Assembly (NCBI GenBank): GCA_043228905.1
Contig: JBHGNT010000309.1
Coordinates: 1 to 36,333, forward strand
Reading direction: 5' to 3'
Length of the DNA stretch: 36,333 bases
Source: Azolla caroliniana
Taxonomy: Eukaryota; Plantae; Polypodiophyta
Shown here piece after piece: positions 1 through 28,446 of the stretch. Every line of letters starts with the position of its first letter. Position 1 is the stretch's first letter. Below the pieces are notes generated by a model. The model worked only from the letters and a program-made list of their open reading frames with translations, was not told the DNA's origin and made no database searches. The translations under genes and the position numbers were made by a program.

Positions 1-2567
1 AGAGGATGCCGCAATCCATTGTGCCGCTCACATAGCGTAGAACTTGCTTAACACAATCCAAGTGAGTATCACGCGGTGTTTGCATGAATTGGCTAAGGAG
101 ACTGACCGGATAACTGAGATCGGGTCGTGTGATCGTGAGGTAGATGAGACTCCCGATGAGTTGTCGATACTGAGTTGGCTCACACACTTTGGTGTCGCAG
201 TTCGCATCTAGTTTGAGATTATGATCGAGCAGGGTTGCCATGGATTTGCACTCAGCCATACCGAACTTGTACAATAAGTTGAGCATGGAGTGCCGTTGGG
301 AGATCATGATTCTGGCCGGAGTCTGAATTACCTCGATGCCGAGGAAGTAGTGGAGCTCCTGCATGTCCGTCATCTCGAACTTGTGGGAAAGGAGGGATTT
401 GACCTTATTGATTTTGACGAGATGCTCACCTCCAATGACTAGGTCATCCACATATAAGATGATGACGATCAGACTTGCGGAATCACTTTGTATGTAGAGA
501 GAGTTGTCCAATTTTGACATACGGAAGCCGATTTGATGAAGATATTGCGTTATCTTCGAATGCCAAGAACGCGGTGCTTGCTTGAGGCCATAGAGTGGCT
601 TCTTGAGTCGGCAAACAACTTTCGGATGGGTGCTTGAGTTGAAGCCGGGTGGTTGGATCATGTACACCTCCTCTTCTAATTCGCCTTGTAGAAAGGCGTT
701 CTTGACGTCCATTTGATGGAGGTGCCACCCTTTCGCCGCGGCAATCGCAATTACGGTCCGCACCGTCGTCATCTTTGCCACCGGGGCAAAGGTCTCTTCG
801 TAGTCGACGCCATGCGTCTGAGCGTATCCTTTCGCTACGAGTCGAGCTTTGTAGCGGTTCATGGAGCCATCGGCATTATACTTCACCTTGTAGATCCATC
901 TGCATCCGATCGCCTTTCTGTGTGGTGAGGTGGGAACGAGATCCCACGTCTCGTTCTTCCGTAGTGCCTACATCTCCTCGTTCATTGCTTCAATCCATCG
1001 CGGGTCCTTCACGGTTTCCGAAAAGGTTTCTAGCTCCAGTACTGTCGCTACCTTCATCATAAAGACGTAATGGTACGCCATATAATTGTTGTAGCCGAAT
1101 CGGCTTACGGGGTTCTTTTCACGAGTGGATCGGCGGAGCTTTTCATTTGCAGAGATGAGGGCTTTCTTGGCTCGATTGGTACCTCGAAACCACCGAACTC
1201 ACTGTCGAGTGAGTGAGTCGACTCATCGTCGTTGAAGCAATCATCTTCGTATTCCGACATTTTCGCCTTGCCTTTGTCCATCTTCGGGCTAGGTCATGAT
1301 GTGCTTTGATCGCTCAAAGGCTCTTGTGGTCCGCTCAATCGGGTCGTGATCGGACTTTCTTCGAATATGCGCATAAGGCGATCTTCATCCTCGATCTCTT
1401 GTTTGGCGAATTCTTGGTCGAGCGGAGTCGGAGTTGGAGTTGTCTTTGGTGCGTACCAGGATGTGGACTCGTCAAAAACGACGTCTCGATTTACTCGAGA
1501 TTTTCGAGTTGAGGGGTTGTAGAACTTGTACCCCTTTTGCTCCAGTGAGTATCCTACGAGGATACATTTCTCCGACTTTGGGTCGAGCTTTTGACGCTTC
1601 TCGTCGGGGATGTGCACGTACGCAATGGAGCCGAATATTCGAACATGTGATAGGTTTGGCTTCTTTCCGAAGAATTTTTCATGCGGAGTGACCTCGTGCA
1701 CGCCGGATGTTGTGCACCGGTTCATTAGGTAGACAGTCGTATTTGCAGCTTCGGCCCAATATGACTTGGGCATATGCTTCTCGTTGATCATGGCCCGCGC
1801 TACTTCGAGGATGTGCCGATTTTTGCACTTCGCTACTCCGTTTTGTTGCAGAGTGTGTTGGCAAGTGAATTCTCACCGAATTCCTTCCTTTCGGAGATAA
1901 CCGTGAAATCATCCGAGAAGTACTCCTTGCTGCCATCCGATCGAAGGCATCGTACATGTCAGCCCATGGCTTTCTCGACTTCATTCTTGAAATTTTGGAA
2001 GTGTCCGAAGAGTTCGCTCTTTTGCTGCATCGGCTAGATCCAAGTGTGCCTAGAGAAGTCATCGATGAAGAGCACGTAATATCGGCATCCGCCGAATGTA
2101 GCCGTCTGCGCCGGTCCCAATACGTCGGAATGGACTATGTCGAGTAGACCTTTGCTCACGTTCCGCTCTTTCGGGAATGGGTGTCGGTGTTGCTTGCCGA
2201 ATTGACACGCTTCGCATACACCTTCAATCTCCTTCTCTTTGAATGTTGAGAGTCCGATGATGACTTCTTTCGATTTCATTGCTTTGAGTTTGTTAAGATT
2301 GATGTGGCCGATTCGTTTGTGCCATAGCTCTATGTCGGAGTCGGCTTTCGTGTTTTTCGCGAACATGGCGGATTTCATCTTGCGTGCATTGAGAATGAAC
2401 ATCCGGCTCTCTCTTCGTCCGCGTGCGATGAGTCGGCCCTCTTTTTCAATGAATCAACCGCCTTGATTAAATCGAACTTGCATCCTTGCTCTACAATTTG
2501 GCCGACGGAGACCAAATTCTTCGTAATGGTTGGTACATGCAAGACATTTTTAATGTAATTTTTCTTA
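1..2567 (-). mobile_element. Ty1/copia retrotransposon pol, 3' part (end of protease region, GAG-pre-integrase, integrase, reverse transcriptase); frameshifted, runs off window start
   Basis: Minus-strand motifs LWHKRIGH..CEACQFGKQ, RYYVLFIDDFSR, YWAEAANTTVYLMNR and KLDPKSEKCILVGY. RT motifs KARLVAKGYAQ, QMDVKNAFL and YVDD (~445-456). INT-before-RT order indicates copia. Confidence 0.95.
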
Positions 2568-2593
2568 GGGTCGAAGCATGCTACGGTGTACCA
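2568..2593 (+). repeat. Left terminal inverted repeat (26 bp)
   Basis: Reverse complement of 14574-14599 with 3 mismatches; preceded by TSD CTTA. Confidence 0.95.
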
Positions 2594-3943
2594 ACTTTTG
2601 GCCAAAAATTTAGTACTAAATCGAAGAAGAAAATAAACATTAAAAATTGTAAATAAATTTCAAAAAACAAAAAACAAATTCATTACGTCACACTCGAAAT
2701 GTCCCTAGGCCATATTTAATACATTAATTGTTGCCCTAGTCTCCTAGGTAGAGTTATACGAAAGCACACCTGGAGAAGGTATCCATTGTGACAGTTGGTC
2801 AGTCTCAGTATCTCTCTCTCTCTCTCTCTCTGGTATGGGTAGTCGAACGTGTCAGTTGGTATGTCTCTCTCTCTCTCTCTCTTCTGTCTCGAAGTTGTCA
2901 GACAGACAGTGGCAGAAAGTTAAAGAAAGACGACATATCTATTACAGGTCTATCTCTCTCTTTCTCTCTCTCACTCCACCTTCAAAGCTCTGTTTCTTTC
3001 TTTCTGTTTCTCTCTCTCACTCCACCTTCGATTCTCTGTTTCCCCGCGTAGCTGTTCTTGTGTTCCCCTCTGTGCCAGGTTCGATCTCTGAACTCTGTAT
3101 ACGCAGAGATTTTTGTTTCCCCTGCTCGTTGTATGTGTTGTTGATTTTCCTTCCTTGTGTATGCTCGTTTGTCTCCTCTGTGTATGCTCGTTTGTCTCCT
3201 CTACAGCAGCCTCGTCAAAAACCTCTTGCATATAGGTGATTTTGAAGGCTTGGTGTGCTCCCAAGGTGTAGAAATCAACACGGTGTGGTACCTCTGCAAG
3301 TTGTACGACCTCCAGGTATTCTCTGTGTTGCATGCCCAATTGGCATGTTTTGTTTTTTTGAATGTTTCTTGTCTGTCTGTTTTTTATTTGCATGTGAATG
3401 GCCATTTTTAGGTTTTGATTATTAATAGTCTATGTGTTGCATGCCCAACTGGTATGTTTTTGTTTTCTCTGTGTTTCTCTGTGTTTCTTTTAAAAATGTA
3501 TGACAATATTTTGATCGAGGTGGTTGTTTGTTAGACATGTTTGTACATGCAACGTAAATGGAGTTGGCGTCGATGAGTTGCTATGTTTTCGTTTTGTTCT
3601 TCTTTCCTGTCCATCTGTTTTATTTTGTGTGAGTTTGACATGGATGAGTGTTTTTCCGACTATTTTGGGTTTTTGTGTGTTTGACATGGCTTGTACATGC
3701 GATGTGATGGAGTTGGCTATGATGATTTACAATGTTTTCGTTTTCTTTGACTTTCCTATCCGTCTGTTTTTATTGTTTGTGTGTTTGACATGGATGAGTT
3801 TTTTTCTGACTATTTAGGGTTATGGTGTGTTTGACATGGTTTGTACACGCAATGTGATGATTTGCTATGTGTTGATGGTAATTGCTTGAGTTTTCTTCTA
3901 GTACATGCATATTCATTCCCTGAGAATTGTGTTGACTAGGACA

Positions 3944-6900
3944 ATGACGAGAAGGACACCCATAAAGAAGACATTGATGAAAGAGAAAGTGAAGACACCA
4001 GTGAAGGAAGGAAGAAGGACACCCATGAAAGAAAGCAAGAAGACACCCACAAGAGAAAGGGTGATGAATTCATCAACACAAAGAAAGAAGATGCACCACT
4101 CCATCAGTCGAGACACACCTCTTGGATGGAATTATTTCCTTCGAGCACGACCTGACGTTTATCCAGAGCTGAGAGAGTGGTTGTTAAAAACCTGGGGGTC
4201 AGCACATCCCGACACAAGGCGAGGATTCCACATAAGTGGTTTGAAGAGGGAATACATGAATTTATTGAAGACGAGATACGAACATGTTTATGATACAAAT
4301 CAAATCACTAACAATGAGGTGGGTACTGTTTTTGCACGTGCTTTTGCATGTGAAGTTCAAGGTGGCATTGACGTGAATTGGGAAGATTTTAATCGGCACC
4401 GGTCAAAACATTACAAAGGGTCCTCTAGTACCAACACTGGCTTGAAGTCATCTGGAACCTCTCATGTGGATATTCCAGCTACAACACCTGTCCACCAAGT
4501 TCTAGAGGCAAAGGTACGGGCCACAATGACTGAAAAGCATGAACACATGATGGCTGGTTGCATAGCTTCTATGAGCTCAAGAATACAAGCACTACTTGCT
4601 GGTTTGGAAGCAGTTAAATCAGCAGAGATACAGGCAGAAAAGAAATATTCTTCAATAAAAACTACATATGAATGGATTGCATCGACAATCCAAAATTCAG
4701 AAAGTGAGGTGTTGAAAGAGGAGTTGAAGAAAGAGCTGAACAATATGGGCACTCAATTAGGTTCACAGATGAGAGACCTTGATACTTGCAGGAATGCACA
4801 TGAAGAAATAGATAATAAGTTGTCAGCCTTAAAGTTGCATTCTGAGAACCTTGCATGCTTGATGCAGGATTTAAAACAAAATGGTTTTGATACTTTGTGT
4901 CCATCTGTAATTGAGCACCCAAGTGGTATAGAAAGTACCATTATTAGTATAGCTATATCACGGTATTGGCTTTAAAAGTTATTTATTTCTACTTCTCTGG
5001 TATAAATAAGTGAGCATCTAATATAATATAACTTGTGTTTGCAATCTTCCAGGTGTATATTTTGTGGCCTCGGATTCAAGCTGGAGGCTATGGATGTTGT
5101 GATTACACCATGCTTGCACACATATCATGTGTAAAACTACAATTGCGGCTGAGTGGTACTATGCTTGGGGTCTAAAAGTACACCCGTACGGTATGTGGCT
5201 CTACTATTCTATTGTTTGTATTATATGATGTCAATTAACATTTGGACTAGAACTAGTGTATGCCACAATTCATACTTGAAATTTAGTGTAATCTCTAACA
5301 ACTATTATGTGGAACCCTAATTATGTGGGTTAGTATTGGCAGTACTCTTAATATATAATTGGTATGTGTAGTTGAAGGGATATTTTCCAGAATTAGTAGT
5401 ACTAAAAGGGAACCATGTACAACATCGTCCAATCTATATTGCAACTTGCCTAGTATTAGTTTAGTAAACACTATACTTATAGTACACTGTTGACTGTTAG
5501 TATTGTTTGTGTAACTTGGGAATTAGTACTAGTAATGTAATTTGGGAACAAGGTGTATAGTAAATTGCTGAATAATAGTACAATTATTGTAATTTGGAAA
5601 TGAGGTGTGTGAAATACATATCACGTTTAGTACTAATACTGTTCAAGATTAATATTGTTGGTGTAATTAGTACAAGTTATGTAACTAGGTGTGTAGACCA
5701 CATATCATGTTTAGTATTACTTGTGTGCAAAATACCAATCTACATTTGTTGGATTAGTACTTAGTAAGTACTACATGGTTCATGATTAGTACTAGTTCTG
5801 TACTTTGTGAACTAAGTTACTAGTACAGTGCTCATGATTAATACTAGTTTTGTAATTTGGGAACTGAGTAGTACTTTGTTCCTTATTAGTACTAGTTTTG
5901 TACCTTATTAGTACTAGATCAGTAATCTAGAAAATAAGTGAGTAGTACATTTTGTAGGATTAGTACTAATTGTGTAATTTGACTAAGTCAATGGTACATT
6001 CTTGAGTACTACATTGTTCAGGATTAGTACTAATTGTGTAATTTGACTAAGTCAGTGGTACATTGTTCGGGATTAGTACTCCTTGTGTAATTTGGTAACT
6101 AAGTGAGTAGTATATTGTGCATGATTAGTACTACTTGTGTAAATTGGGAACTAAGTGAGCATTACATTGTTCGGGATTAGTACTCCTTGTGTAATTTGGT
6201 AACTAAGTGAGTAGTATATTGTGCATGATTAGTACTACTTATGTAAATTGGGAACTAAGTGAGCAGTACATTGTTTGGGATTAGTACTCCTTGTGTAATT
6301 TGGTAACTAAGTGAGTAGTATATTGTGCATGATTAGTACTACTTGTGTATATTGTGCATGATTAGTACTACTTATGTATATTGTGCATGATTAGTACTAC
6401 TTGTGTAAATTGGGAACTAAGTGAGCAGTACAGTGTTCCTTATTAGTACTAGTTCAGTAATTTAGGAACTATGTGAGTAGTACATTGTTCATGATTGGTA
6501 CATTGTGTAATATGGGAAGCAGCTCTTGTGACCTACATTATATATTTTAGATGATGGTACTAACATTCAAGGTTTTTTTGTTTCTTGCAATGAATGTTGT
6601 AGTGTCAAGCAACTCCACGCCAGGGAAGGTAATGGAACAACCAACCCCTGTGCCTAAACCCTCAATATCTGCTGCACATTCCAAGGTTCAGGGACCATCA
6701 TTACCAATAACCTATGATTTTTATGATGAGGATGAATGTATGAGAAGGGCCATTGGAGCAGTGGCACATATGCTTCTACAAACAAATTCCCCAAACTCCA
6801 GTCAACATCAAGAAATAGAGCCCACTAAGAAGAGAAATGCAGTTTCTTTACAAATAGAGCCCAGTAAGAAGAGAAATGCTGCAAGAATGTTGTATGGAAA

Positions 6901-8395
6901 CGGCAAGAAAGGCAAAGTTGAATGCAATGGTGAGTCATATAAGTTCTCACCTGTCCAGAGCATTGTCAACCTAATCCATTGTCTAATACCATGTACTTGT
7001 GTTACTAGCTGATGACGAAATGATATTTGGTGACGGAGATACGAGTCCAAAACTTGATCGTGAAGACGAATTTATCACACTCCTAGGTACACGTCAAAAG
7101 CCAGACTTTGAAAACAATGATTTAGCTCATAACAACCCTATTTTTGTTGCTATTATAGATCATAACAACACTGTTGAGCACCTAGATGTTGTGGAGAAGA
7201 TGACCGAGCCCACCACTTGCAATGGGGTATCTACGGCTGTACAGTATGATGATGTAACATTAGGTAAAAATGTGGCCCCTAAACCCTATGTTCATTGTTT
7301 GCAAACTTTTGAGTATGTGAGTTGATACCAATATTCTTTGGAATCCCATTAATTAGGTTTACAAGAGCAGTCTGATTCCCAACTGCAATCAAATGAATCA
7401 GGAACTTCATGGAGCACAAGTGCAGAGTCAGATTCTGGTCAGAGTCAGAATCAAATTAACCTTTGCACGGAGGCAGACTCTAGAAGCACATCTTCCACAC
7501 ATGAGGACTGTGAGAAAAACGAAGCATTCATATGTGAAGAGCAGCTGGCATGTACAAACAACACTATGTCTAAAGAAGCCTATGAGGAGTGTGGAAAGAA
7601 TATGGCAAGTACTGAAGAGAAGATTGAAGCCCATGAAGAGTGTGGAAAGAATACTGATAATGTGTTAGTAGTGTCTACTGATAATGTGCTAGTACTGTCT
7701 AAAGATTCCCATGAGGATCATGGAAAGAAGATTGCTAGTAATGAAGAGGAGCTTGATTGTACTGAGAATGTGCTAGTAGTGTCTTGTGAAGCCCATGAGG
7801 ATCGTGGAAAGAACATCGCTTTCCCTGAAGATAAGCCTGATTGTACAGAATCCCATGAGGAGTGTAGAGCGAACAACGTTACTAATGAAGGGGGGCCTGA
7901 TTGTATACTCAGAGCAAGCATACTAGCATCACCCAAGAGGACCAGGCAATAACGACCACCCAAGCAGGTACACGTTGTCTTAAGAATGAGGTGACATCCA
8001 CCGTACAAGAGGAGTTGACCATGACTACTGCCACGGTCCACATACAGGAGTCTAATAAGAATGAGTGTATAGGCATCGATGATGATGATAGGGCAATAAA
8101 GATCGCTAGGAGTACAAGCATTCAGGAGATGAGTGATAATTTGTCTATCGACAGCACCTTTGTGGATTTGTGTACAAGCATTGCAGTTGCAGAAAACACA
8201 GTTGCTCTCTCAAGCTTGCCACCAGTACAAGGTGCCCGCGCATCCACGCCTGTCTCTGATGCCTCTGATGATGAAGTGCCACTTAGTCAGCTCATACCTA
8301 AAGGCTTTAAGATAAAGAAGAATGTAAAATCAGAAAAATCTGGCACCAACAACAAGCGCATTACAAGATCGGCCAAGTTACCCTCTAGTGCTTGA
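3944..8395 (+). pseudogene. Transposon accessory gene, 5 coding exons (~3944-4962, 5053-5190, 6603-6929, 7009-7263, 7357-8395): basic TPxK N-terminus, coiled coil, partial RING-type finger, acidic low-complexity C-terminus
   Basis: All four GT-AG introns join in consistent phase (2,1,1,1). Exon 2 reads CIFCGLGFKLEAMDVVITPCLHTYH, then a frameshifting deletion, then CKTTIAAEWYYAWG. A second frameshift lies near 7900. Confidence 0.75.
5740..6510. repeat. Intronic tandem repeat, ~52-bp monomers in a 104-bp dimer, rich in TTAGTACT
   Basis: CGGGATTAGTACT recurs at 6068 and 6172 (104 bp apart) with alternating monomer types; degenerate copies on both sides. Confidence 0.85.
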
Positions 8396-8524
8396 TTGTC
8401 TTTCGGTTGTACTTGAACTTTAGTTGTTAGTGATGTCTGAAATTGAACTATTTGGATACCAAAATACTGTTTCAATTGCCAATGTCAAAAATCCAGTTCA
8501 TGAATCTGAAATAGTTATACCAGT

Positions 8525-9366
8525 GTGAAATCAAGTTCATGTTTAAGGATTGCTTCTGTATTTTGCTCGTCAACATATATCAAAAACAATGGGAATATAC
8601 TTTTTGATCTAAGTATTCTTATTTTACAACGTTTTGTTTCTTTTTTGAGATCATCTCCTAATCCTCGCAAAGTCTTTCAGTCTGTTGTAGATAAAATGCT
8701 TGAAAGTCTTCTTAGCTTGCTAGGAAAATTTAGGTTTTCAGGTGTTGATGATGAGAAACAGAAAATATCGGGTGTTATTGAAGATATACTGAATTATAGA
8801 CTGTTTCATCAATCCCATTTGGAGGGTAACCAGAATGTGTGCAAATTGTTGAAGCAATGTGGGCCATATTTTGATGATATCATCCCAAAGGATGAACCAT
8901 CCACTAACAGTAGTAAGGAAACACTTAAAGAAAGAAAGGTCTCTACTTTAAAATCCATAGCCTGGATATTCAGGACTTATATACAAGAAGTTAAAACTCA
9001 GATGGCTTCACAGGACATATCATGAAACAAAAAAGGATTCTAAGAGAATAATTTTCTTTGTTGTCTTAACAGAATTCATCACCCCCTTTGAAGAATGAAC
9101 TTACAGTAGAAAATCTTACAATATTAAAGTCTTTAATGAATTCAACTAACAATCTTCTCTTGGTAGCAAAAGAAGAGCATATTTATGTGCCAACAAAGGA
9201 CACACCAACTCTTATGAATCTAGACTTTATCAAGAAGATATACGATATTTTTACTCATTTTAACATGGCTCTGCAAAACTTCTATGCTCAAATAACATCA
9301 GGAAACATGAGCAATATCGGCAATGAAGAAATCCAAGTCCTGTTGACAACAGCTAATATATTATGA
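8525..9366 (+). pseudogene. URB2: Probable captured fragment of plant URB2/Npa2 (nucleolar pre-ribosomal protein), broken by a stop/frameshift
   Basis: LSILILQRFVSFLRSSPNPRKVFQSVVDKMLESLLSLLG...VIEDILNYRLFHQSHLEG resembles the plant Urb2 segment (LEPF..FL..HP..K..F.DFxDKLxEP..xLLG...IEDILS..LFH..HIDG) as recalled; not verified by search. Confidence 0.5.
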
Positions 9367-9511
9367 AAGATAAGTACAAGTGGTTGAGAGGCATAAACAC
9401 TTTAGAAGAAAGACGAAATATATCAATTCATTTGTCAATCATCAAAATTAATAGTGAACTCCAAGTGGATGTTTTTCAGTTTTCTAGTACAATGTATTGA
9501 TAGGGTGACTT

Positions 9512-12500
9512 TCAAGCATTAAATAGAGAGACCTCCCCTAATATGTGCTCATGAACCTCTTGGGGGACCTTGTAGACAGTGTTGTATCCCTTAACCTTGT
9601 GCTTTGCTTGAGTCATATTGAATTTGATCGCAAGAATGGCATTAGCGTAGATTATTGCGATGGGTGCTTCTTTTAGTAATGCATATGTGTTCTTGCACTG
9701 CGGCAACTTTGCATAATAGTTTCCATACACGACAGACTCACCAACGTTGAAATTGTTGCCCCAACCATCCCTCACCACTTCTTTCAATAATGTCTTTCCT
9801 TGCTTGCACACCACAATGTAGTAGTCTTCTAAATCTTCATTCTAAGGAGATTTGAGCACTGCAAAATGATCTCCAACTTCTAATAAAATTGCCAAGTCTT
9901 GATTTTGGTTGTAGTATACAATATCGTTTGAATGCACATCCTCTTCAATATCATCTTGTCGTTCAGGCTCAAGCTTCTATAGCTTCCAGGGCTCCACGAT
10001 TGATAGGTTGATGCATTTATCCCAAGCTTCATCTAGACACATGGAACAAAAGCATGATAAACTACGGAGTAACAATTGTGTTGTGTCCTTGCGGCTAAAC
10101 CCTAACACACAATGGGTGTTGCGTGTGCCTTTCACGGTTTTACAACCATATGATTTAATTCTATCGACCTCATCAGCGCGAACTTCAACAAACTATCTGT
10201 TCTTACCATCATTTGACATCTTCCATGTTAGCCACTGCACAACATCATGTGCATTTTGTAACTTAGCACCATTATTATCCAACTGCTCACTTGTAAGGGC
10301 ACGTTTGATCACAGCCCCCGCGCCATCATGCTCTCCTTTTCCATGTCCAGACCCGAAGTAATTCCATTGCATACGAATATTGAATAAGGAGAAATACCTG
10401 CTTTGGTATCTTAGGTTTCCAACAAAATTAGTACTATGTTGTCAATTGAGAGTACTACACTTCCATTAATACTGATTTAGTACAAATACAAAACAAAGCA
10501 TAGCACAACGTATCCATTGAGAACACTCTACACTTATTAAAAGATAAATAGTACTATGTTGTCAACCAACAGTACCTGGCATCCATTTAATACTAACTTA
10601 GTATGGATATAGCACAAAGTATAGTACAATGAGTTCATGGAAAGCACTCTACATGTATTAACAGATAAATAGTACAAAATGTTCAATATCGGATAGTACA
10701 GTACAATGTGTCCACGAAGAACACACCCCTCCTTAGAAGATCATTAGTACTACAAGACATGTACTTTACATCCCCCAATAAACACTGATTTAGTATAGAT
10801 ACAACACATAGTACAATACAGTGTGTTCATGGAGAACGCTGAACATTGATTAATAGATAATCAGTACCACACAGTGTGTTTAAAAGATGAGTACAAGATG
10901 AGTACAATACTATGAGTACAACATGAGTAAATACTGATTTAGTACAATTCTCTGAAGGACGGACAATACTATGAGTACAAGATGAGTACTTTACATCCTC
11001 CTGTAAACACAACATAGTACAGATACAACACACAACATAGTACAATGTGTCTATGGAGAACCCTTCACATGGATTAAAACATAATTAGTACAATTCTCTT
11101 AAGGACGGACAATACTATAAGTACAAGATGAGTACTTTACATCCTTTTGTAAACACAACATAGTACAGAACCAACACACAACATAGTACAATGTGTCTAT
11201 GGAGAACCCTTCACATGGATTAATCGATACTTAGTACAATTCTCTTAAGCACGGACAATACTCTGAGTACAATATGAGTACTTTACATCCTTCTATACAC
11301 ACAACATAGTACAGATACAACACACAACATAGTACAATGTGTCTATGGAGAACACTTCACATGGATAAAAAGATAATTAGTACAATTCTCTTAAGGACGG
11401 ACAATACTATGAGTACAAGATGAGTACTTTACATCCTTCTGTAAACACAACATAGTACAACGTGTCTATGGAGAACACTTCACATGGATTAAAAGTTACT
11501 TAGTACAATTCTCTTAAGGACGGACAATACTATAGAGTACAATACGAGTACTTTACATCCTTCAGTAAATACTGATTTAGTACAGATAGAACACACAACA
11601 TTGTACAAACAAAATTAGTATGCATGCATCCATTCACAAGTGCAAGATTCGAATAGTTACAAACATAATTAGTATGCATCCATGTGAATAGTACTGTTTG
11701 TTAATAGTTACAAACATAATTAGTATGCATCCACTAACACAGGAATTACTTCCTTACACATTGCATGATAAGTACTAAACATATGGATTAAAAATTACCT
11801 GGCGATAAAGTAGAACGATCGTGCCGCCTTAAACTGTGAGGCAGCACCATCAGACCAAACCCAATGACGGTTAAAGGTTAACCCTAGAGAAAATAAATCT
11901 GCATGGTGAAGCTTAAAACAATGTTGAACAAATAGTGTATCATGCTTTTTATCATTTGAAATGTAAAATATTGATTTCTTATGTAACTCACCGTCTTGCC
12001 TCCAATAGCAAATATGTACAAGTATTGTACATTGATCATTGTACCAATGCATTGATTGAACCTCATTTTGAACTTTAAATGTATAGTTTTCTGCAAAATC
12101 AATAACGGATACGATGACACCCATTGGTAAGTTATTAATACATTCCTTGAACTGTGAATTTTGCCAATAACTCCGGAAGTTATGTGGAATGAACTCCCCA
12201 AGTTGTTTCTTCAATTCTGAGACAAGGGTAGCAACACATGTCTCCTTATATACTTCCTTGATACGCTTAGTTACAACTCCCTTGCCAATATTTTCAGTCA
12301 CATACTCCAAATATTTCCATTTCACGATATGACTATTTCCCAAATCAAGCTCCTGCCTACAAAATAATGGTAGCGGACAAACCTTACATGTTCTTAATAG
12401 ACATGTACGACGATGCCACTCACATGATGGTTCTTTTTCACAAACACAAGACCTCCATAGCTCAGAAACGGATGCATAAGTCATGTTTCGTGCATGACAC

Positions 12501-13459
12501 CTATTATCCTCCCCATTTGGTGTACAAATCTCACAAGTGCAGACACATAATTCCCCGTGTATACCCTTAGAATCAGTACACATTGCATTCACTGCTAACC
12601 TTAACATGTCCATCTTCACATGGTACACACAACAACATGTATTCCTCTCATTTAATTATCTAACATAAAATGGTTTCAAACCTTGGAACTTGTGGAATCC
12701 AACAGTCAAGCTTGGATGTTGGTCTTTAAAGTTCATGTACAATTCAGCCTAGATCAACCAATATATATAGCAAACATTAATATACACTTGGTCAAAACAT
12801 AAAGTTATGGAATGTGAATTGATATAGAAAAATGGAATACCTCTGTCATCTCCAAGAAGTGTCTAGGCTGAATCTGGTACTTACCCTGACTTATTCATTG
12901 TCTACACACGTCCTTCTTATTTGGTGAGACACGCGTATTTTTGGCCCAAAATGAATCCACTTTCTCAATAATCTCTTGAGATAAGGCATCACATCGTTGT
13001 CTACGTCCCAACCCCAACCACTTGAATTTGCTTGAGTGTATATTTCGGCGATGTTTCCTCAAGTTCCTTCTTTGAATACCCAGGGCTAAGGCAAATTTAG
13101 TATCACTATATTTTTTTCTCTCGCACAACCATGTGTAGGGCTGCCCTCTTTGCAGCAAGTTTGTCTAAGCTCTCTACACCTTTCACTAAGTCTAGGGATG
13201 ACTTCATAGACTCCACAATCTCTTCTGAAACACATTGGTCCCTAAATTTTATTCTCTCCATGTCTTCATTCAAACTTTGATGGTGTAACACTCTACAAAT
13301 AATATCCCTACGATCCTCTTCACTAAATCTCTTCATTATTTCTACCAAATAACGGACTATGTGAAGAACCACTCGTCTCTTAGTCCTTTCAGATATGCAT
13401 GAGTTACTTGACAACTCACTCTCGTTAGGAACCCCCATTCGGTCACTAGATTTATCCAC
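9512..13459 (-). pseudogene. DDD transposase, Sola2-like; 3 exons (~13459-12841, 12748-11799, 10397-9512), with several stops and one frameshift
   Basis: Motifs F.GLKPFYV..CCCVYH, Cys clusters, IDFAENY (~12081-12103), EVQSMHW, WVWSDGAASQFK (~11830-11865), WNYFGSGHGKGEHDGAG (~10317-10367), C-terminal SCFCSMC. GT-AG introns 12840-12749 and 11798-10398 restore the frame. Confidence 0.88.
10939..11600. repeat. 146-bp tandem repeat (~4.5 copies) in transposase intron 2
   Basis: TTAGTACAATTCTC at 10939, 11085, 11231, 11377 (146-bp period) and 11500 (123-bp interval). Confidence 0.92.
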
Positions 13460-13671
13460 AAAAATTAAGTGTCTTGCGAAAGTAGTTAGTGTTATATAGA
13501 CTCAACCAAGAAAACACAATCAAATGTTTTTAAATGTGGCCTGCAAAGTGAGAAATATTTTGTTTCAAACATTAGAATTACATATCAAATATGACAAATG
13601 TCAATTCTAAAAATTTAGTACTGAAATATGAAGAAATGAAACATTTTAGTACTGAAAATAAAAAAATGGAT

Positions 13672-14076
13672 GGAAGGAACCTCCAATGGTGGAGGGAGCG
13701 TTGGATATGCCGCCTCGATTTGGTGGAAGGAACCTCCAATGGTGGAGGGAGCCTGGATATGCAGCCTCGATTTGGTGGAAGGAACCTCCAATGGTGGAGG
13801 GAGCGTTGGATATGCCGCCTCGATTTGGTGGAAGGAACCTCCAATGGTGGAGGGAGCGTTGGATATGCCGCCTCGATTTGGTGGAAGGAACCTCCAATGG
13901 TGGAGGGAGCCTGGATATGCAGCCTCGATTTGGTGGAAGGAACCTCCAATGGTGGAGGGAGCGTTGGATATGCCGCCTCGATTTGGTGGAAGGAACCTCC
14001 AATGGTGGAGGGAGCGTTGGATATGCCGCCTCAATTTGGTGGAAGGAACCTCCAATGCCGCCTCGATTTGGTGGAA
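13672..14076. repeat. Subterminal 53/52-bp minisatellite, 7 full copies plus 1 truncated, each containing the hairpin CCTCCA-ATGG-TGGAGG
   Basis: Units start at 13672, 13725, 13777, 13830, 13883, 13935, 13988 and 14041; variant order A-B-A-A-B-A-A'. Confidence 0.97.
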
Positions 14077-14160
14077 AAAGCCCCAAATCACCACGACATC
14101 AACTGCAATCGGTGGAAGTAAGAAAGTCATTGTCGAAGAAGTCATTATTGGCTGCTACCT

Positions 14161-14220
14161 AAACCCTCACAATAGTCTCTGTACCTCAACCTAAACCCTA
14201 ACAAAAACAGAAACCCTAAA
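14161..14220 (-). promoter_or_regulatory. Telo-box-like AAACCCT(A) cluster upstream of the transposase
   Basis: AAACCCT at 14161, AAACCCTA at ~14193 and 14211. Telo-boxes are common in plant promoters and 5' UTRs; function is inferred. Confidence 0.35.
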
Positions 14221-14573
14221 AAAATAAAAAATCTTGAACTCAAACTCTCCAACCAGACATGGATGTCTGATATTTAGATTGAAGGAAAATCAGAAACGTG
14301 ACATGGATGTCTGTGATGAAAAGCTCAGAGGGATAGAGGAAGAGGAGTATGAGGGGAAGCGCCAAAATCGACGTGAGGGGAAAATAGCCCCCAAAATGGA
14401 AGAACATCTCCTCACGTGTTCCCCCCACTCCTTCTACAGTAAATGACACTTGTACTACAGTCACCCCACTCTCCAAAATCGATTTTCTTTTTCTCTAATT
14501 TTTTTTCTAAATTATTCAGTACTAACAGTATTGAAAGTACTGACAATTTTTGTGGCAAAAAACAGTACTTTTC

Positions 14574-14599
14574 TGGTACACTGTAGTGTGCTTCGACCC
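14574..14599 (-). repeat. Right terminal inverted repeat (26 bp)
   Basis: Followed by TSD CTTA (14600-14603). Confidence 0.95.
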
Positions 14600-15830
14600 C
14601 TTACCTTCTTTTCCGAACGGAACATTGCCAATGTGCCGAATCGGGTGCGTAGTGTCATCTCCAGTTTTGACATAGCCGGGTCGGTCCGGCTCTCGGAGTT
14701 CTCGGAACCATTCTTGATGCGATGTCATATAGTTCGAGGCACCGGAATCAACGAACCATACGTCTTTCGGACCGGAAGCACTAGTTGAGGTAGCGGCCGA
14801 CATAGAGTTTGCTCTATGTTTAATCATGAACATTCCGCCACGGTCGGAGTTGTGCGCATACATTCCACCACGATCTTCGTAGTCGGAGTTGTGCCCGTAC
14901 ATTTCGCCACGGTCGGAGTTGTGTGCATACATTCCTCCACGATCTTCGTAGTCAAAGTTGTGTGCGTAATTCGTGAGTTGTCGGTTTGTGGAAGCTGATT
15001 CACGCATCTTCTTTCGGCACTCTTCTTCGTGGTGGTCGAGCTTTCTGCAATATCCGCATTCGGTTCCGTTTTGACGGCATGGGCCGGAGTGGAAGCTCCC
15101 CCTTCTTGCGAAGGTTCCTCTTTGGCCTCCGTTTTGTGGTCGAAATTGGGAGTTGTTGTCGTAGGTCGGACCTCGTCCACTTTGTCCTTGGCCGAATCGG
15201 CCTCTCGCTCGTCCGCGTCCTCTTCCTCCATTAGAGTGCATGTAGAGCATGTGGCCTTCCGACTCATTGCTCCTTGTACGCACGTGGTTTTCTTCGACCA
15301 ATAGCATTGATTGGAGCTCGAAGAAGGAGGGAGATTTCTCCCGTGCTAGAACGGCGGTTTGCATCACGCCGAACCGTGGTGCGAGGCCGCCGAGGCATAT
15401 TTGCACCATCTCATCATCATCTATACTTACACTTATTGAGCCGAGCGAGTCACAAAGCTCCTTGATCTTCAAGGTGTATGTCGTGATGGACATGTCCCTT
15501 TGTTGAATGTTGTTCAACTCTTGGCGGAGTTGAAGCTTCCTCGCGGTCGTGTTGGCGGCGAAAATCTTTCGTAGATTTTCCCACGCTTCCTTCGGCGTCC
15601 TCTCGAATGGAACCGAGCATGTGGTCATGAACACATGTTGCCAAAAATACATCACGCAGCTTGCGGCTTGCTCCCATGTCTCGTATCCGGGAGCCGCTTC
15701 ATGCGCTCCTTTGATGTAGCTCCAATAGCCTTGTCCGCCAAGGTTTTGGTGCATCTTGTACTCCGAAGATGCGAAGTTGTTTCAATCCAACTTCTCGGTA
15801 GGGAGAGCGCTCCCCATTTGAGTATTCATT
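14600..15830 (-). mobile_element. Ty1/copia gag-protease (5' part of the element split by the transposon)
   Basis: UBN2-type gag (KEAWENLRKIF..RKLQLRQELNNIQQ), CCHC-like knuckle CGYCRKLDHHEEEC, protease WFVDSGASNYMT. Confidence 0.93.
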
Positions 15831-15976
15831 ATGTCGATTCTTCTTCTTCTTCTTCTCTCTTCGAATGCGAGCTATGTAGCGAAGCTACGATAGCTATGAC
15901 CCGGTTCTTGGTCGTCGGCGTAGAGCACAACACACAATCACGATGAGGCGAATGGGCTAGATCGATCTACCAAATC

Positions 15977-15988
15977 GTTCTGATACCA
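15977..15988 (-). promoter_or_regulatory. Copia primer-binding site (tRNA-iMet)
   Basis: Minus strand CA|TGGTATCAGAAC versus canonical TGGTATCAGAGC. Confidence 0.85.
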
Positions 15989-16304
15989 TGTAAAGAATCA
16001 AGAGATGGATTCTTGTGAAGCGGAAGAGATGTGAGTTATGTGTGTGTGTAAGAGAGAGAGAGAGAGTGAGTGAAACACAGAGAATACGCAAGGTAAAAGT
16101 CTATTGACAAAGGAGAAAGACTCAACATTATACAAGGTGGGAGGAGGGTGCTTTATGTAGTCACCCTCTCTCTTCATTGACTACAAGACTCATGGAGCAT
16201 GGGGAATGTGAAAGCTCATAAGTTATGTGTCATAGAATATGATTCTATGACTCATACTAAATGCTAGAATACAAAGTCGTGACATAATAATGGTGACTCT
16301 TGAC
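15989..16304 (-). mobile_element. Copia 5' LTR (~316 bp)
   Basis: TG immediately after the PBS on the + strand; ends TTGAC(C) where the gypsy gag sequence begins. Outer terminus is imperfect. Confidence 0.7.
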
Positions 16305-17054
16305 CGTTGGAGTGTCTCTTCACTCTCAAGGTGATTTCACACACTATACCAAGTTGAGCTTGATTCTCAACATTCTACCACCCCTGGTTTCGTGTGTCTC
16401 ACTAATGCAGCCTGTGGATGTTTGGCCACTCAACGGAGACCCGTCATTCCATTCCCTTCTCTTATTGAAGCAACTCCAAACCCGTTTTACCATAGCCCAA
16501 TCCGTCATGAGCCCATCATTAGTTTCGAGGAGGAACCCCACCTTCTCTCGGTCTCATGCATCAACAGTCTTTATGAATAGTAGGACCTTGCTTGTGTCAA
16601 GCACCATCCTATCGAGCGTCAAGAGTCGAGCGAAGCGCTTCTCAAATTCTTGTAAAAGTACCATAGTACTTCTCCCCTTGCCGGGAAGCTCAACCCACTC
16701 CATTAGATCCCTTTTCGAAATTCTGAGTGAGTCATCAAGGCCGTACTTCTCGAGGAGTCTTTCTTCAAACTCCACCCAATTGCAACAGTCCGCTTGGATC
16801 TCGAGTACCTCCGTGTGGATACTCGGCGTTACCACTCTAGAGAATCCGGTTAGCCTCCTATCTTCGGGGACATTTCGCATAAGCATTTCGGCCTTATAGG
16901 CATCCAAGTAGCTCATGATATCTCTTCCATTGAACCGACCCGTTGTGCTTACCATCGTCTCTATGGCCCGGTCTAGGCCGGTCATGCCTTCTCGGGCATT
17001 TACTAAGCGGTCCACCGCCGCCACCATCACTTCAGCGAGTTCTCCTCCTCGCAT
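16305..17054 (-). mobile_element. Ty3/gypsy gag remnant (non-chromovirus, possibly Phygy-like), interrupted by the copia element
   Basis: ORFs 16554-17096 and 16344-16541: GRFNGRDIMSYLDAYKAEM...WVEFEERLLEKY...LLETNDGLMTDWAMVK, a retrotransposon capsid-like sequence lying downstream of a PBS and LTR. Confidence 0.75.
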
Positions 17055-17076
17055 CTTGGTTCTCCCTTGCCGCCCT

Positions 17077-17095
17077 TTCACGTCGGGTTCACCCA
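17077..17095 (-). promoter_or_regulatory. Primer-binding site complementary to tRNA-Trp
   Basis: + strand TTCACGTCGGGTTCACC(C)A matches the 3' end of plant tRNA-Trp(CCA) (...TTCACGTCGGGTTCA-CCA), 4 nt from the LTR end. Confidence 0.8.
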
Positions 17096-17099
17096 TTTA

Positions 17100-18789
17100 T
17101 GTCGCGAAGTTTCGCGCACGTGTGTTACTTGGGCGGGACCACGAGGGTTTTGGACTAGGGAGTACTCAAGGGATAGAGAAGACCCGAGGTTTGCTTTACG
17201 ACAATACTACTTCCCGGCCCCTTCCTGAGCAAGGTCTCGTTGCCCTTTGTTTTGTGAGGTCGGTGGCTCTCGTTGATCACGACTCGTCGACCTTCCGAGA
17301 TCACCGCACGAGCCAAGTGACCAAACGGGTACAAGCAAGATGATTACGCAACATGAGCGCACAAGGGGACGATAACAGAAACATGAATGTCCGTATGTCT
17401 TTATGAGGAGGAGAGGTGCATGGGCACGCCCGAACGATTCCTCGTCACAAGACGTCGAACGTACGAGGAAGACACAAAACACATGCACAAATGCTCGTAC
17501 GCCTTTATGAGGAGGAGAGGTGCATGGGCAAGCCCGAACGCTCCCTCGTCACGAGACGACCGAACGTACAAGGAAGACACAAACACACGCACAAAATGCT
17601 CGTACGCCTTTATAAGGAGGAGAGGTGCATGGGTGAGCCTGAAATGCTCCCTCGTCACGAGACGGTCGAACGTACAAGGAAGACACAACACATGCACAAA
17701 ATGCTCGTACGTCTTTATGAGGACGAGAGGTGCATGGGCACGCCCGAAACACTCCCTCGTCACAAGACGGCCGAACGTACAAGGAAGACACAAACACACA
17801 CCCACATGCTCGTACACCTTTATGAGGAGGTGAGTTGCATGGGCAATCCCGAATGGTCTCCTCGTCACAAGATGGCCGAACGTACAAGGAAGACACTAAC
17901 ACACACACAAATGCTCGTACGCCTTTATGAAGAGGAGAGGTGCATGGGCAAGCCTGAACGGTCCACTCGTTACAAGACGGCTGAACGTACAAAAAAAGAC
18001 ACAAACACACACACACAAATGCTCGTACGCCTTTATGAGGAGGAGAGGTGCATGGGCAAGCCCGAACAGTCCCCTCGTCACAAGACGGCCGAACGTACAA
18101 AAAAAAACACACAAACACACACACACAAAATGCTCATACGCCTTTATGAGGAGGAGAGGTGCATGGGCAAGCCTGAACAGTCCCCTCATCACAAGACGGC
18201 CGAACGTACAAGGAAGACACGAATAAAGAAAGAAGGAGAGAAAGAAACACGAATGATATCAACCAAAGAGATAAATAGGTGTTCGATTCCAACGCTAGAG
18301 AACCCTTTATAAAATAGGGTTTTGTTTACAATGGCAACTTATAGTTAACCACAAGTTCAATCAAAACATAAATATTAAATGCCCTTAGAGACAAACGTAA
18401 ATCCGAACACGGTGAAGATGAACACATGAGCACCACCAAAATGTCAATCCCAACGAACCACGACCACCCGAACGGCGAGCACACAGGTTCGCAACGACGA
18501 ATGGGGCGGAGCAACGTCAAACCAACGAATCTTGGGCTCACGAGCACTTCAAGTGCCGACACGAAGAGGACGAGCACGTGGCGATGGGGAGATGAAGGGG
18601 TATGAGATGAAGAGAAGTGGTAAATAAGGAGATGAAGAGCTTCGAAGGAAAATTGGCGATAGTCTCCTCCTCCCAAAACGTCCTCCCGAATGAGCCCCCC
18701 TCGACCTCTTTTTATAGGAAAAAAAGAAGGGGGGGTCGCCAAATTTGTCTTCAATAAAAAAGGAATAAAATTCCTTAAATCATGCTACA
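17100..18789 (-). mobile_element. Gypsy 5' LTR (~1.69 kb)
   Basis: TGTCGC (17100)...TGCTACA (18789) imperfect inverted ends, adjacent PBS, TATA-like TATAAAAA on the minus strand near 18710-18717. Confidence 0.7.
17385..18221. repeat. ~105-bp tandem repeat, 8 copies, inside the gypsy LTR
   Basis: TTATGAGG-type anchor at 17401, 17505, 17610, 17715, 17820, 17925, 18033 and 18144. Confidence 0.95.
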
Positions 18790-19114
18790 CTATAAGTCCA
18801 AATTCAAACCGTGCACCTCTAGCTTATAGTCAATGTGACTATCCACTAGCCCACTAACTCTCTTTTATATAATATATAATTCTATCTCTATAAATTTATA
18901 GCCTCTCTCCCCTCTACCTTTTATCTCTCCTCTCTCTTACTTTTTGCACGAGCTTCTATACCTCCTTTTCACCCTTTCTTTTCCTTTTTACTTTGCATAT
19001 ACACAGTTAATCGCATTTGTGTGCACACACATTGCACATGCAACTTTTTGACCCCCCCTTCCGCCGGTTTTAACCACCCTCGAGCACGCCACATCACGAC
19101 CCTCGAGCACGCCA

Positions 19115-20842
19115 TAAAAGAGAGAGAGAGAGAGAGAGATAAGACTTGGAATGGAAATGAGATTATTTTATGAAGAAACAAGGTTACAAAGAGTAGGCTA
19201 AGGGCTAAATACTGGTGTTGAACCGAATGAGTTATGATAAATGAATAGACACCTATTTATAGGTCCTTATGGAGTATTCTAGAATGTTCTAGAATATTCT
19301 AGATATTTATGATATTTAATACAATCATGGAATATCCTAGAAAGTTCTAGAATATTCTAGAATACTCTAAATATCTTGTAATAACTAATAATATATTTAT
19401 TGTAAATATATATGATATATGTTATTATAATGGTTAAAGGTATCTTGGGCTCGAGTCCTTGTAAGGCCAAAATGTATGTCTTCATGACATTATGCTCCCT
19501 TTTGGACAATGAGTTCCATGGGTCAGAAGACAAGATTTCAGACTTTGTTTATGGGGATATTTGTTGTGAAACATAGCAACCATTTCGAAAGCATTAGCAA
19601 GATTCTCGAGAGGTTCCCATGTTCGATCATTAGGTGTATAACCTAACCAATCAACCAAATAATACAGTTTGTTGCAAACGATCTTGGAATCGAGAATGGT
19701 AGAAACTTCACATTCGAAGCCATTCGAAACTTTGATTGGAGTTGAGGAAGATGTAAGCCGACCTGCAATAGAGTTGGTCTTGTACGTCTCCAAAAGTGAA
19801 ACATGGAAGACCGGGTGAAGATGCATATGAGGGGGAAGATCAAGGCAAAATGCCACATCATTAATCTTACCAGATATCACATATGGGCCAAAACGTTGAT
19901 AATCCAATTTGCAGCTTGAAGGTCGGGTTGTTTTAATGTGACCTTGTAAAACCCATACTCGATCTCCCACTTGAAACGTAGTCAATGAATCACGTCGATG
20001 ATGGTTGACAACCTTCTTTTGAGTGTTTTAAGCATCACATAAATGGTGTAAAAGGATATCTTGAACTTCTTGGAGTCGGCTGAGACGATCATCAACAGTC
20101 AAGTTCGTCGGGAGTTCGGGATGTTCAAGCATAGTCGAATGAGGATGGTACCGAATGTTTGCAAAAAATGGGGAATATCACCCTGGGACGCAACAAGTAA
20201 AAGCAGATGCTTTATGTCGACGTTGATATGTAGAACTTCAACCAGGAGAGGCACATTTGAAAGTCAAAAGCAAATCCTCTTGGGTCTTGACCATCTACGA
20301 CTAATGGCATTTCATGTTATAGACACACCCGAGGATTCAAGTCTTCTGGACTCCATTCGAGAGCATATTGCGATTGATGAATTCGCCCAAGACATTCTGA
20401 ACCATATTATCCTAGATCGTGCTTCTTGTTCACAATCTCAAAATCCTCGTCAAGACTACAACCAGTTCAATTGGTATGATGGATTACTTTTTCGACAAAA
20501 TCTCTTATATGTGCCTGATGGTCCTTCTCGACTCCAAGTCTTGCAACAATGTCATGACGCACCAATGGCTGGATATTTCGGCATCCACAAGACTTTGACG
20601 TTAATTTCTCGAAGATATCGGTGGCCACGACTTCACCATTTTGTTGTGGATTATGTTCGTAATTGTGATACATGTTGCCGATCCAAAAAAACTCGACATC
20701 ATCCATATGGGTCATTAGAGCTAGTGCCTATTCCTGAGAGTCCATGGAAATCTATTTCATTGGTCCTTATTACGGATTAGCTCTTAGCCTACTCTTTGTA
20801 ACCTTGTTTCCTCATCATATAACCTCGTTTCCATTTCAACTC

Positions 20843-24406: not shown

Positions 24407-25054
24407 CTATGCACTACCACTTACATCACCATTAATATCCAATGGCGATGTAGACTTTGGTTTAACGGCAAACCCTGCAGAGAGCCATCCTTGAGCCTTC
24501 GCCTTATCCACGTACCGTAAAAGCTTCTGCTTTGCATCATGTATGTCCAAGGCAAGATCCTCTAAGCTATCTAAAACTCTGGTGAAACCTTTCAACATCT
24601 CATTTGAAGTGATAAGGCCTTCACGAGAACATTCTTGCAGCAAGTTCAACAAATTCTCATTCTGTTTCTCCATGGCCATAACAAGAGCTTTCTTCACAAC
24701 TTCATGGTGGAAGAATGGCATATCAAGGTCCCGAATACATTGGCAAGCCTCCAACACATCTCCACCAGCTTCATACTCTTCCAAGAGCTTCACGATTTTG
24801 TCTTTTGCATCCTCTACAGCCCAGCCAGAGCCACCTCCCCAGCACCGCAAGATTCGTTCACTAGCATGCAAAGGTGGTGACAAGTAGCTTTTCTCAGCTT
24901 TATGTATGACATTATGACCTTTCGATCCTTCGGGCAAAGTTTGGGTTACTTTATGAATAAATGATGGAGGAAGAATATCATCAACAATAGCTCTAGCCAC
25001 AAATAGAGCAAGTATATCGAGTGCATCTAGTATGTCAATCACCAAGTCATCTGG
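24407..25054 (-). CDS. PDCD4: MA3-domain translation regulator (plant PDCD4-like, MRF/ECIP1 family), 3' fragment; 5' part absent, possibly a pseudogene
   Basis: DDLVIDILDALDILALFVARAIVDDILPP...AEKSYLS...ERILRCWGGGSGWAVEDAKDKIVKLLEEYE...PFFHHEVVKKALVMAME...GLIT..EMLKGF..LEDLALDI..GWL; open to the stop. Likely 3'-UTR intron starting GTAAAT at 24406. Confidence 0.9.
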   Translation of the reverse strand, partial: PDDLVIDILDALDILALFVARAIVDDILPPSFIHKVTQTLPEGSKGHNVIHKAEKSYLSPPLHASERILRCWGGGSGWAVEDAKDKIVKLLEEYEAGGDVLEACQCIRDLDMPFFHHEVVKKALVMAMEKQNENLLNLLQECSREGLITSNEMLKGFTRVLDSLEDLALDIHDAKQKLLRYVDKAKAQGWLSAGFAVKPKSTSPLDINGDVSGSA

Positions 25055-25128
25055 TATTCCCGAATAGACTGAGCAGTTGGAGTAGCCACTAGTTTATATG
25101 GTTCCTGATAATTCAACATTTATTATGA

Positions 25129-26321: not shown

Positions 26322-26821
26322 GTCCTCCAATTGTCGACATTCTTTTCACTTAAGAATAACTACTCCTTTATGCGTTTTTGGTTTGCTTATTATCAAGCTT
26401 AGATAGATAATATCTCCAACATTTTAGTGTGCACAATACTCAAATCGATTCATAAAAACTAGAAACAATTTTCTTGACTACTTATGGTGGTTGACTCAAA
26501 ATCAAATGTTTGCTTCCCATAGCTTGGAATCCTACATTTGTAGACTTTCTTTTAGAATATTTGATGTTGCCGTCGTTGATTTATATCGAGCCATTGTGTG
26601 GCAAACCAATACATTATCAAAATTTAGTGAGGTGACATCTATCATGAATATTTGACCGCTTAAGCCAAATGTGTCAATATTAGCCCGACTCCATATTTTG
26701 AAAATTTCCTAATATAACCGAATATTTTTGCCTTAGCATAACGCCAACTAAGATAATCATTACACGGATTGCCCAAAATATTAATAGTTGTACTATTTCA
26801 TGGTAGAAGCGAACCAAATAT

Positions 26822-26902
26822 GGCAAATTGGCTGAGTGGTTAAGGCGTTTGATTTGAAATCAAATGGGTTCGCCCTCGTAGGTTAGAATCCTGAAGTTGT
26901 TG
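26822..26902 (+). tRNA. trnS-UGA: tRNA-Ser(UGA), degenerate copy
   Basis: 81 nt; TTTGA-TTTGAAA-TCAAA anticodon arm, GGG-TTCG-CCC variable arm, mutated T-loop (GGTTAGAATCC). Confidence 0.7.
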
Positions 26903-27153
26903 AGATTCTTTAACTATGTTTTGGAAACTATTTACAAACATTGCGCTTCTGTGCTTTAAACATTAAATATCCCAATAGGAATCAAATGTATGTGCACTAA
27001 AATACTTGTGAACACTTAAATCGTATCGCTACCCAAAGAATAAAGACTCATTATTTTCCAATTTCCTACCTTATTAGCATGGTTACATAGAAAATATTTT
27101 CAACATTTAATCACAACCAATACTAAAATATATTATCGTAGATGGCTACATAG

Positions 27154-27225
27154 GATAATTAGGCCGAGTTGTGAAGGCATTTGAGTAGATATGAAATGGG
27201 TTCCCACTCGTAGGTTTGAGCTTGA
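27154..27225 (+). pseudogene. Highly degenerate tRNA-Ser copy
   Basis: Aligns to neighbouring copies (GGCCGAGTTGTGAAGGC...GGGTTCCCACTCGTAGGTTTGA); anticodon arm disrupted, 3' end lost. Confidence 0.65.
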
Positions 27226-28401: not shown

Positions 28402-28446
28402 GCCAATTAGGCCAAGTGGATTAGGTGTTTGACTTGAAATCAAATG
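28402..28446 (+). pseudogene. 5' half of tRNA-Ser, cut by the gypsy remnant
   Basis: GCCAATTAGGCCAAGTGG...TTTGACTTGAAATCAAATG, followed by unrelated sequence. Confidence 0.75.

Follow-up and report, generated by a model that had tools for sequence, protein, structure and literature searches.

A Sola2 DNA transposon of the fern Azolla caroliniana carries a conserved accessory gene with a RING-H2-like finger and a candidate role in anti-silencing

Introduction

Why would a DNA transposon carry, beside its transposase, a gene that joins a RING finger to a domain of no recognised family? The question is raised by a 36,333-nt stretch of repeat-rich plant DNA from Azolla caroliniana (contig JBHGNT010000309.1, assembly GCA_043228905.1; hereafter the window), in which a first-pass annotation, made from the letters alone, had described a damaged five-exon gene as a transposon-borne accessory protein, possibly an E3 ligase or adaptor with an anti-silencing or transposase-regulating role comparable to that of VANC. 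Our analysis places this gene within a Sola2 transposon, and it is almost certainly a conserved accessory gene of such elements. The sequence findings alone define a family of accessory genes, so far undescribed, that is conserved among distantly related plant Sola2 elements. The function that we favour, with reserve, is that of an anti-silencing factor targeted to its own family.

Results and discussion

The gene lies within a Sola2 transposon

The accessory gene is enclosed by a 12,032-bp DNA transposon of the cut-and-paste type (2568-14599), in which it runs convergently with the transposase gene (accessory gene on the + strand, transposase on the - strand; Table 1). The ends of the element can be set beside the form GRG...CYC that the original description of Sola2 reportedly gives. 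A 4-bp target-site duplication (TSD), short terminal inverted repeats (TIRs) and the motifs DF(A/S)ENY, SD..H, SDG..Q.K and HGK...DG identify it by sequence as a Sola2 transposon; a 3-bp TTA duplication of the Harbinger type was considered as a reading of the ends and dropped, the flanks giving 4 bp. The right end at 14599 was confirmed by two sister contigs (L003 and L004), whose alignments to the window start exactly there.

Statements on published work refer here and below to excerpts of the cited sources. The window translation shows DFAENY, SD..H, SDG..QFK and HGKG..DG as in the Sola2 alignment used for comparison (14 transposases; PMC3627910, Additional file 10, part 1 of 2), and a 4-bp TSD is given for Sola2 in PMC3627910 and in Table S2 of PMC12973397. 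The latter lists a Ceratodon Sola2 element (cluster_4006) of 10.9 kb with a 26-bp TIR beginning GGGTG, and the 26-bp TIRs of the window element are alike.

The window copy as a whole is dead, because its accessory gene is broken and its transposase carries 7 in-frame stops (over three alignable stretches). Its insertion split a Copia retroelement, with RVT_2 and SH3 on the left and gag on the right. This retroelement (1-2567 and 14600-16000, - strand) is not depleted in CpG (observed/expected ratio 1.19), and the Sola2 exons are (0.35-0.57).

The accessory gene is conserved beside Sola2 transposases

We found 45 relatives of the transposase, among them proteins of Klebsormidium, Ceratodon and Calypogeia; none of 108 pattern matches in viral contigs was confirmed. 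The gene model of one relative, Klebsormidium nitens P0022 (KFL_005820050), joins leucine-rich repeats to a Sola2-like transposase, which may be a fusion or an annotation join.

Linkage was scanned with the transposase alignment in the best 80 of 294 confirmed stretches, which collapsed to 56 elements. In fourteen distinct elements the downstream DNA extended for 4 kb or more, and eight of them carried an accessory homologue: four with domain and RING, three with RING only and one with domain and coiled coil only. The expectation of the first-pass annotation that homologues would sit beside DFAENY transposases, and would not prove to be unlinked host genes, was thereby borne out. The linked homologues always lay downstream, 4.2-9.3 kb from the transposase and on the opposite strand; none was found upstream or on the transposase strand (14 elements with 4 kb upstream; 185 kb searched upstream and 178 kb downstream). 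Profiles built without any locus sequence recovered seven of the eight, and tblastn the eighth. The linked distant elements, whose transposases are 33-41% identical to that of the window, probably reside in bryophytes, judging by their Ceratodon-like ends. In one of them (L059) both ends were located, at 6820 and 19900; transposase, domain and RING all lie between them, and 3 of 4 TSD bases match.

Accessory homologues numbered 35 in the full HMMER search and 14 in the profile search. The nearest named ones, four in number, come from the fern Adiantum nelumboides and are annotated as hypothetical proteins, and no annotated host gene was found among the homologues. Sister proteins of 340 amino acids have exon 1 open and stop where exon 1 is spliced; identity in the domain is ~63-67%. 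In two homologues, P0079 and P0090, a single frame without introns encodes domain, coiled coil and RING. These intronless homologues without a known genomic context, and an expressed fern subfamily that may not be mobile, would suit a passively captured host gene without a role for the element. That explanation is very improbable and already largely refuted, since side, strand and domain order are constant in elements with such divergent transposases, silent changes are in excess (see below) and annotated host genes are missing from the homologues.

Structure and transcription of the accessory gene

The five exons of the first-pass annotation stood: every intron has GT/AG ends, and the phases (2, 1, 1, 1) are consistent once 47 missing nt are counted. 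The intact product comes to ~940 amino acids, slightly more than the ~900 proposed. The proposed order of parts also held, with a basic N-terminus (19 Lys and Arg in 57 residues), a globular domain, a long helical segment, the RING and an acidic tail rich in Ser, Thr and Pro; the C-terminal end of exon 5 shows a short likeness to P0071 (E 0.002).

A frameshifting deletion had been suspected near 5130, within the RING. We aligned four runs, of DNA and polyA RNA, to 3050-5500. In both DNA runs the deep contigs break off from the window at 5131 and run on in letters that it does not have, and their overlapping loose ends supply the 47 nt; because both carry the missing letters, the deletion is specific to the window copy. 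It removes RING ligands 6 and 7 and shifts the frame. The missing stretch was also present in 23 RNA reads of X21 and 6 of X23. A second frameshift had been overlooked, consisting of 2 extra bases at 7904 in exon 5, which are absent from the main contig of X11.

On 3050-5500 we found 65 polyA RNA reads among 12.6 million records in X21 and 19 among 11.9 million in X23. All were less than 95% alike to the window and hence derive from a different subfamily, and the sequence of their loose ends agrees with protein P0081/P0046. The reads of the accessory gene lay on one strand, opposite to the transposase reads. In this related subfamily the 4962/5053 junction was observed directly, 17 reads of X21 and 6 of X23 joining the end of exon 1 to 5052. 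Likeness to the window reached 95% or more in 26 of the 56 X21 reads and 7 of the 38 X22 reads on 6540-10440, which indicates that the window's own family is weakly transcribed. No exon junction was listed among the RNA reads on 6540-10440, so that junctions 2/3, 3/4 and 4/5 are placed by splice signals and phase only; RNA runs for the exact window stretch were likewise not listed. Among the RNA differences listed in the exons, 12 of 22 were silent against an expected fraction of 0.22 (P 0.0008, an indicative value for this listed subset), as were all 4 of those listed in the RING exon. A 150-bp repeat in two copies lies at 3524-3932, in the presumed 5' leader intron of the gene.

TAGTAC motif arrays

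The word TAGTAC, counted on both strands, has 80 occurrences in the 12-kb element against 4 in the remaining 24.3 kb of the window. The sites are concentrated in accessory intron 2 and the transposase intron (counts in Table 1), which do not align with each other, and stand in 49 distinct contexts. With the tandem arrays masked, 11 and 7 sites remained where 1.4 and 0.7 were expected, values reached in none of 300 simulations. In the L005/L007 subfamily, ~85% alike in the exons, the intron carries 22-27 sites per kb and shares only 23 alignable bases with the window intron. The 53-bp array upstream of the transposase, found also in sister contig L003, is free of the word.

In a cross-region test (8 elements, 1,884 words), the top word of the region after the RING was ranked on the transposase side. 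It ranked first twice, as GTACTA in the window and as CAAGTA in the distant element L024, which has CAAGTA massed in the same two places; each word is absent from the other element. In the remaining six elements the rank was 289-1870, with second or third words ranked 2-70 in four. Other family-specific words (TAGTCA, CTACTA and ATGGAC/AGTCCA) are clustered in non-coding parts of related Sola2 elements (L004 at 2000-3000; L014; L052 and L059 at 9000-10000).

We put the chance that the accessory protein binds the TAGTAC motif at about even; the transposase may be equally available as its binder.

The RING-H2 finger

Read by eye from sister contigs and RNA, the intact finger has the ligand spacing C-x2-C-x15-C-x-H-x2-H-x2-C-x10-C-x2-C. 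All eight RING-H2 ligands are present in intact sister copies, the window copy being incomplete through its deletion, so the RING-H2-like assignment of the first-pass annotation survives the recovery of the missing part. Complete sets of eight were also found in P0067, P0079 and P0090. A profile built from eight sequences had 68 hits at E 0.5 among 177,635 solved sequences; its nine best matches are RING-H2 ligases, led by ARK2C/RNF165 and Arkadia and including RNF38 (E about 1e-6 to 5e-5 for these three). P0079 reached the Pfam cut-off for zf-RING_11, and a conserved W..W/hG helix follows the finger. Two regular-expression scans of the loci for RINGs gave no match because distant copies are decayed or ligand-variable; the profiles and tblastn found them.

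In RING E3 ligases, contact with the E2 involves a Trp in the central helix, a Pro after ligand 7 and a basic linchpin, residues that are not universal among active RINGs. In the accessory finger, His replaces the E2-contacting Trp of ARK2C, the Pro is mostly absent (present only in P0079), and distant members have C-x4-C as the last pair and no basic residue after ligand 8, where the window family and P0079, unlike the other members, have Lys. The profile also matched the PHD-type finger of KMT2D (E 2e-5). With such features, the finger could lack catalytic activity and act as a scaffold, or as a reader of histones, in a protein that binds the motif or plays a structural part; the PHD fingers lower in the list of profile matches would agree, as would the element L020, whose accessory homologue has domain and coiled coil and no detectable RING (Table 1). 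We consider this quite unlikely, given the C3H2C3 ligand order and the identity of the nine best solved matches. On balance, the sequence inclines us slightly towards an active E3 ligase.

The N-terminal domain and the helical segment

The globular domain, a model of 103 residues, is confidently folded (pLDDT 91.8). We found no Pfam family near the cut-off, no Foldseek match at E 0.001 in PDB and BFVD, and no VIA-align match above Z 3.0; six VIA-align rows at Z 2.2-2.6 are MerR-type or Ski/Dachshund DNA-binding domains, too weak to be used. The ESM Atlas gave no usable match for the window domain and only weak unnamed clusters, at low recognition, for a distant version, and a word-based search with exon 1 among proteins of 595-2000 amino acids gave none. 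The domain may have a new fold, although its absence from the solved and viral structures compared falls short of proof. An identity as plant mobile domain or Transposase_32, suggested by a likeness, was rejected for want of a Pfam row.

The segment annotated as coiled-coil-like was upheld in part: the model of P0079 shows one 117-residue helix there and weak coiled-coil Pfam rows were obtained, but the window protein itself gave a weak result in a simple test for heptads.

A substrate domain followed by a coiled coil and a RING is a common layout of ligases. The protein could therefore be a diffusible E3 ligase, its N-terminal domain binding a host silencing factor that the RING marks for degradation, with no targeting to DNA and some other use for the motif. 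The RING-H2 matches and the failure of VIA-align and Foldseek to recognise a DNA-binding fold are in keeping with such a protein. It would, however, leave the intronic family-specific motif unexplained, and anti-silencing with a broad effect is described as rare in plants (PMC12973397); we regard this explanation as unlikely.

Proposed function

In the mechanism that we propose, the basic tail would direct nuclear import and the N-terminal domain would read the intronic word. The coiled coil is predicted to dimerise the protein and to hold the RING away from the DNA, where the RING would ubiquitylate nearby chromatin or a silencing protein. The outcome would be relief of silencing, by which the family is kept expressed. 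Taken whole, a self-targeting, RING-bearing anti-silencing factor is a tentative proposal, to which we give somewhat less than an even chance. Still more tentative is its most specific form, a sequence-addressed ubiquitin ligase in which a domain of new fold reads an amplified intronic word and ubiquitin-based anti-silencing arose independently of VANC.

Apart from the residues of the finger and the element without a RING, several observations weigh against this proposal. DNA binding by the N-terminal domain is putative, and no DNA-binding fold was recognised in it. Only 2 of 8 elements had the top post-RING word in first place on the transposase side as well, and TAGTAC-like words also occur near both termini. 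Six of the 14 elements showed no homologue; one of these has a Gypsy insertion downstream, and three offer only 5-6 kb. RNA is scarce, as the 65 reads in 12.6 million records show, and binding and activation of a family can be achieved by its transposase without a partner (bioRxiv 10.64898/2026.08.24.746577).

A rather unlikely but serious contender is a cofactor or regulator of transposition, which would bind the transposase and control its turnover through the RING, the motif being bound by the transposase or by the pair. The two-gene layout is stable across elements, both genes are transcribed in the same runs, MURA and MURB bind each other directly with similar pairs cited for Harbinger and CACTA (PMC12973397), and RING-bearing transposases exist in Chapaev and RAG1 (PMC4411706). 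However, the 14 Sola2 transposases in the excerpt of PMC3627910 are given without such a partner, the partner described there being Fanzor, and the motif arrays lie deep in introns and not mainly at the element ends.

The anti-silencing proposal lends itself to direct tests, as the RING offers an assayable activity and the candidate target word makes a DNA-binding test simple. Very few examples are known of how transposons overcome silencing by the host, and the biochemistry of VANC is still thin. If the proposal is true, motif-plus-reader systems have arisen convergently outside flowering plants, a further DNA-binding fold would be added, and a compact programmable tool for ubiquitin delivery would be at hand.

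Other features of the window

A third, decayed coding region lies between the two genes of the element. It has sense RNA reads in two runs, and a separate gene or an extra exon are both possible. Two of its stops are sense codons in one sister contig, which has ~50 nt extra near 8927; the main contig of X11 carries large deletions here, and no Pfam family came near the cut-off.

Outside the element, an exon with an MA3 domain (24407-25093, - strand; E 3.7e-36) appears to form the 3' end of a host gene surrounded by repeats. Nested Gypsy fragments lie at 16297-20780, 28836-31579 and 34173-36284, one of them with SH3 and a chromodomain; at 17392-18220 a 105-bp unit forms an array of 7.8 copies. 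Six tRNA-like copies of 63 bp, at 26804-28446 and 31583, are probably heads of short interspersed nuclear elements or decayed tRNA duplicates; ARAGORN called two tRNA-Ser(TGA).

Table 1. Features of the Sola2 element and its accessory gene (window coordinates, except the last row; pLDDT, predicted local distance difference test; pTM, predicted template modelling score)
Feature	Position	Strand	Basis or remark
Left TSD, CTTA	2564..2567	.	identical 4 bases flank right end, 14600-14603
Left TIR	2568..2593	+	begins GGG; 23/26 bases match right end
Exon 1: basic N-terminus, globular domain, helical segment	3944..4962	+	open frame; sister-protein boundary; RNA junction
Globular domain, ~100 amino acids, no recognised family or fold	4115..4423	+	model pLDDT 91.8, pTM 0.85
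Predicted coiled-coil segment	4529..4879	+	homologue model helix; weak coiled-coil Pfam rows
Exon 2: RING-H2 finger, 47-nt deletion at 5130/5131	5053..5190	+	sister contigs and RNA
Intron 2: 22-, 29-, 52- and 64-bp tandem arrays; 42 TAGTAC sites	5191..6602	+	
Exon 3, low-complexity linker	6603..6929	+	splice signals, phase, partial RNA cover
Exon 4, acidic	7009..7263	+	splice signals, phase
Exon 5, acidic repetitive tail, basic end; 2-nt frameshift at 7904	7357..8395	+	
Third decayed coding region	8510..9366	+	open reading frames; sense RNA reads
Transposase, C-terminal exon	9515..10408	-	HGKG..DG motif; 4 stops
Transposase intron	10442..11794	-	121-146-bp tandem arrays; 25 TAGTAC sites
Transposase, N-terminal part and core	11798..13501	-	Cys-rich region, DFAENY, SDG..QFK
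53-bp tandem array, 7.3 copies	13671..14057	+	upstream of transposase
Right TIR	14574..14599	-	26 bp; GGG...CCC ends overall
Right TSD, CTTA	14600..14603	.	pairs with 2564..2567
L020 accessory homologue, 568 amino acids: domain, acidic repeats, coiled coil	7026-8732 of L020	-	beside open 639-amino-acid transposase frame

Comparison with known systems

Our literature search found no description of the accessory gene; the original Sola paper and Repbase Reports were outside its scope, and plant Sola2 entries in Repbase might annotate a second open reading frame. The element shares its transposase motifs and 4-bp TSD with Sola2 as treated in PMC3627910 and PMC12973397, whose excerpts describe no second gene of this kind. 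The main text of PMC12973397 does not contain RING as a whole word, and in its supplement Sola appears in at least four rows, those of Table S2. The partners described for Sola elements are Fanzor1 (Sola2, amoebae; PMC3627910) and a ParB-methyltransferase (Sola1-1_Ec32; PMC12477816).

As two-gene autonomous elements with a non-catalytic partner, MuDR with MURB, Harbinger with its Myb/SANT protein and CACTA with TnpA offer a parallel; none of these partners is described with a RING in the excerpts of PMC12973397 and bioRxiv 10.64898/2026.08.24.746577. PIF/Harbinger combines a 3-bp TSD with a Myb/SANT partner, whereas the window element has a 4-bp TSD and neither Myb nor any other DNA-binding Pfam match was obtained in the accessory gene exons or homologues. 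In RAG1 and Chapaev, as in our element, a RING finger moves together with a DNA transposon, but there it is fused to the transposase and here it is of the H2 type and encoded by a separate, convergent gene; as of 2015, RING was not known in transposable elements outside the Chapaev/RAG1 group (PMC4411706). With ARK2C/RNF165, Arkadia and RNF38 the accessory finger has the RING-H2 ligand order and spacing in common; it differs from them in lacking the Trp and usually the Pro, and in being joined to an unrecognised domain.

A further parallel in organisation is with VANDAL elements and VANC, where tandem repeats have built up a short, family-specific target motif within introns (PMC5735166). Both systems have a separate accessory gene with a conserved domain and a variable repetitive region, and in both a short family-specific motif is massed in introns. 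The Sola2 gene differs in belonging to another superfamily (VANDALs being Mutator-like elements) and in bearing a RING finger, and no VANC-type Pfam domain (DUF) was obtained for any of its exons or homologues. The window motif, moreover, is near-palindromic and found on both strands, and for the Sola2 protein motif binding and demethylation are hypothetical. The analogy with VANC drawn by the first-pass annotation may nevertheless be said to gain circumstantial, independent support from the intronic motif arrays, which that annotation had missed.

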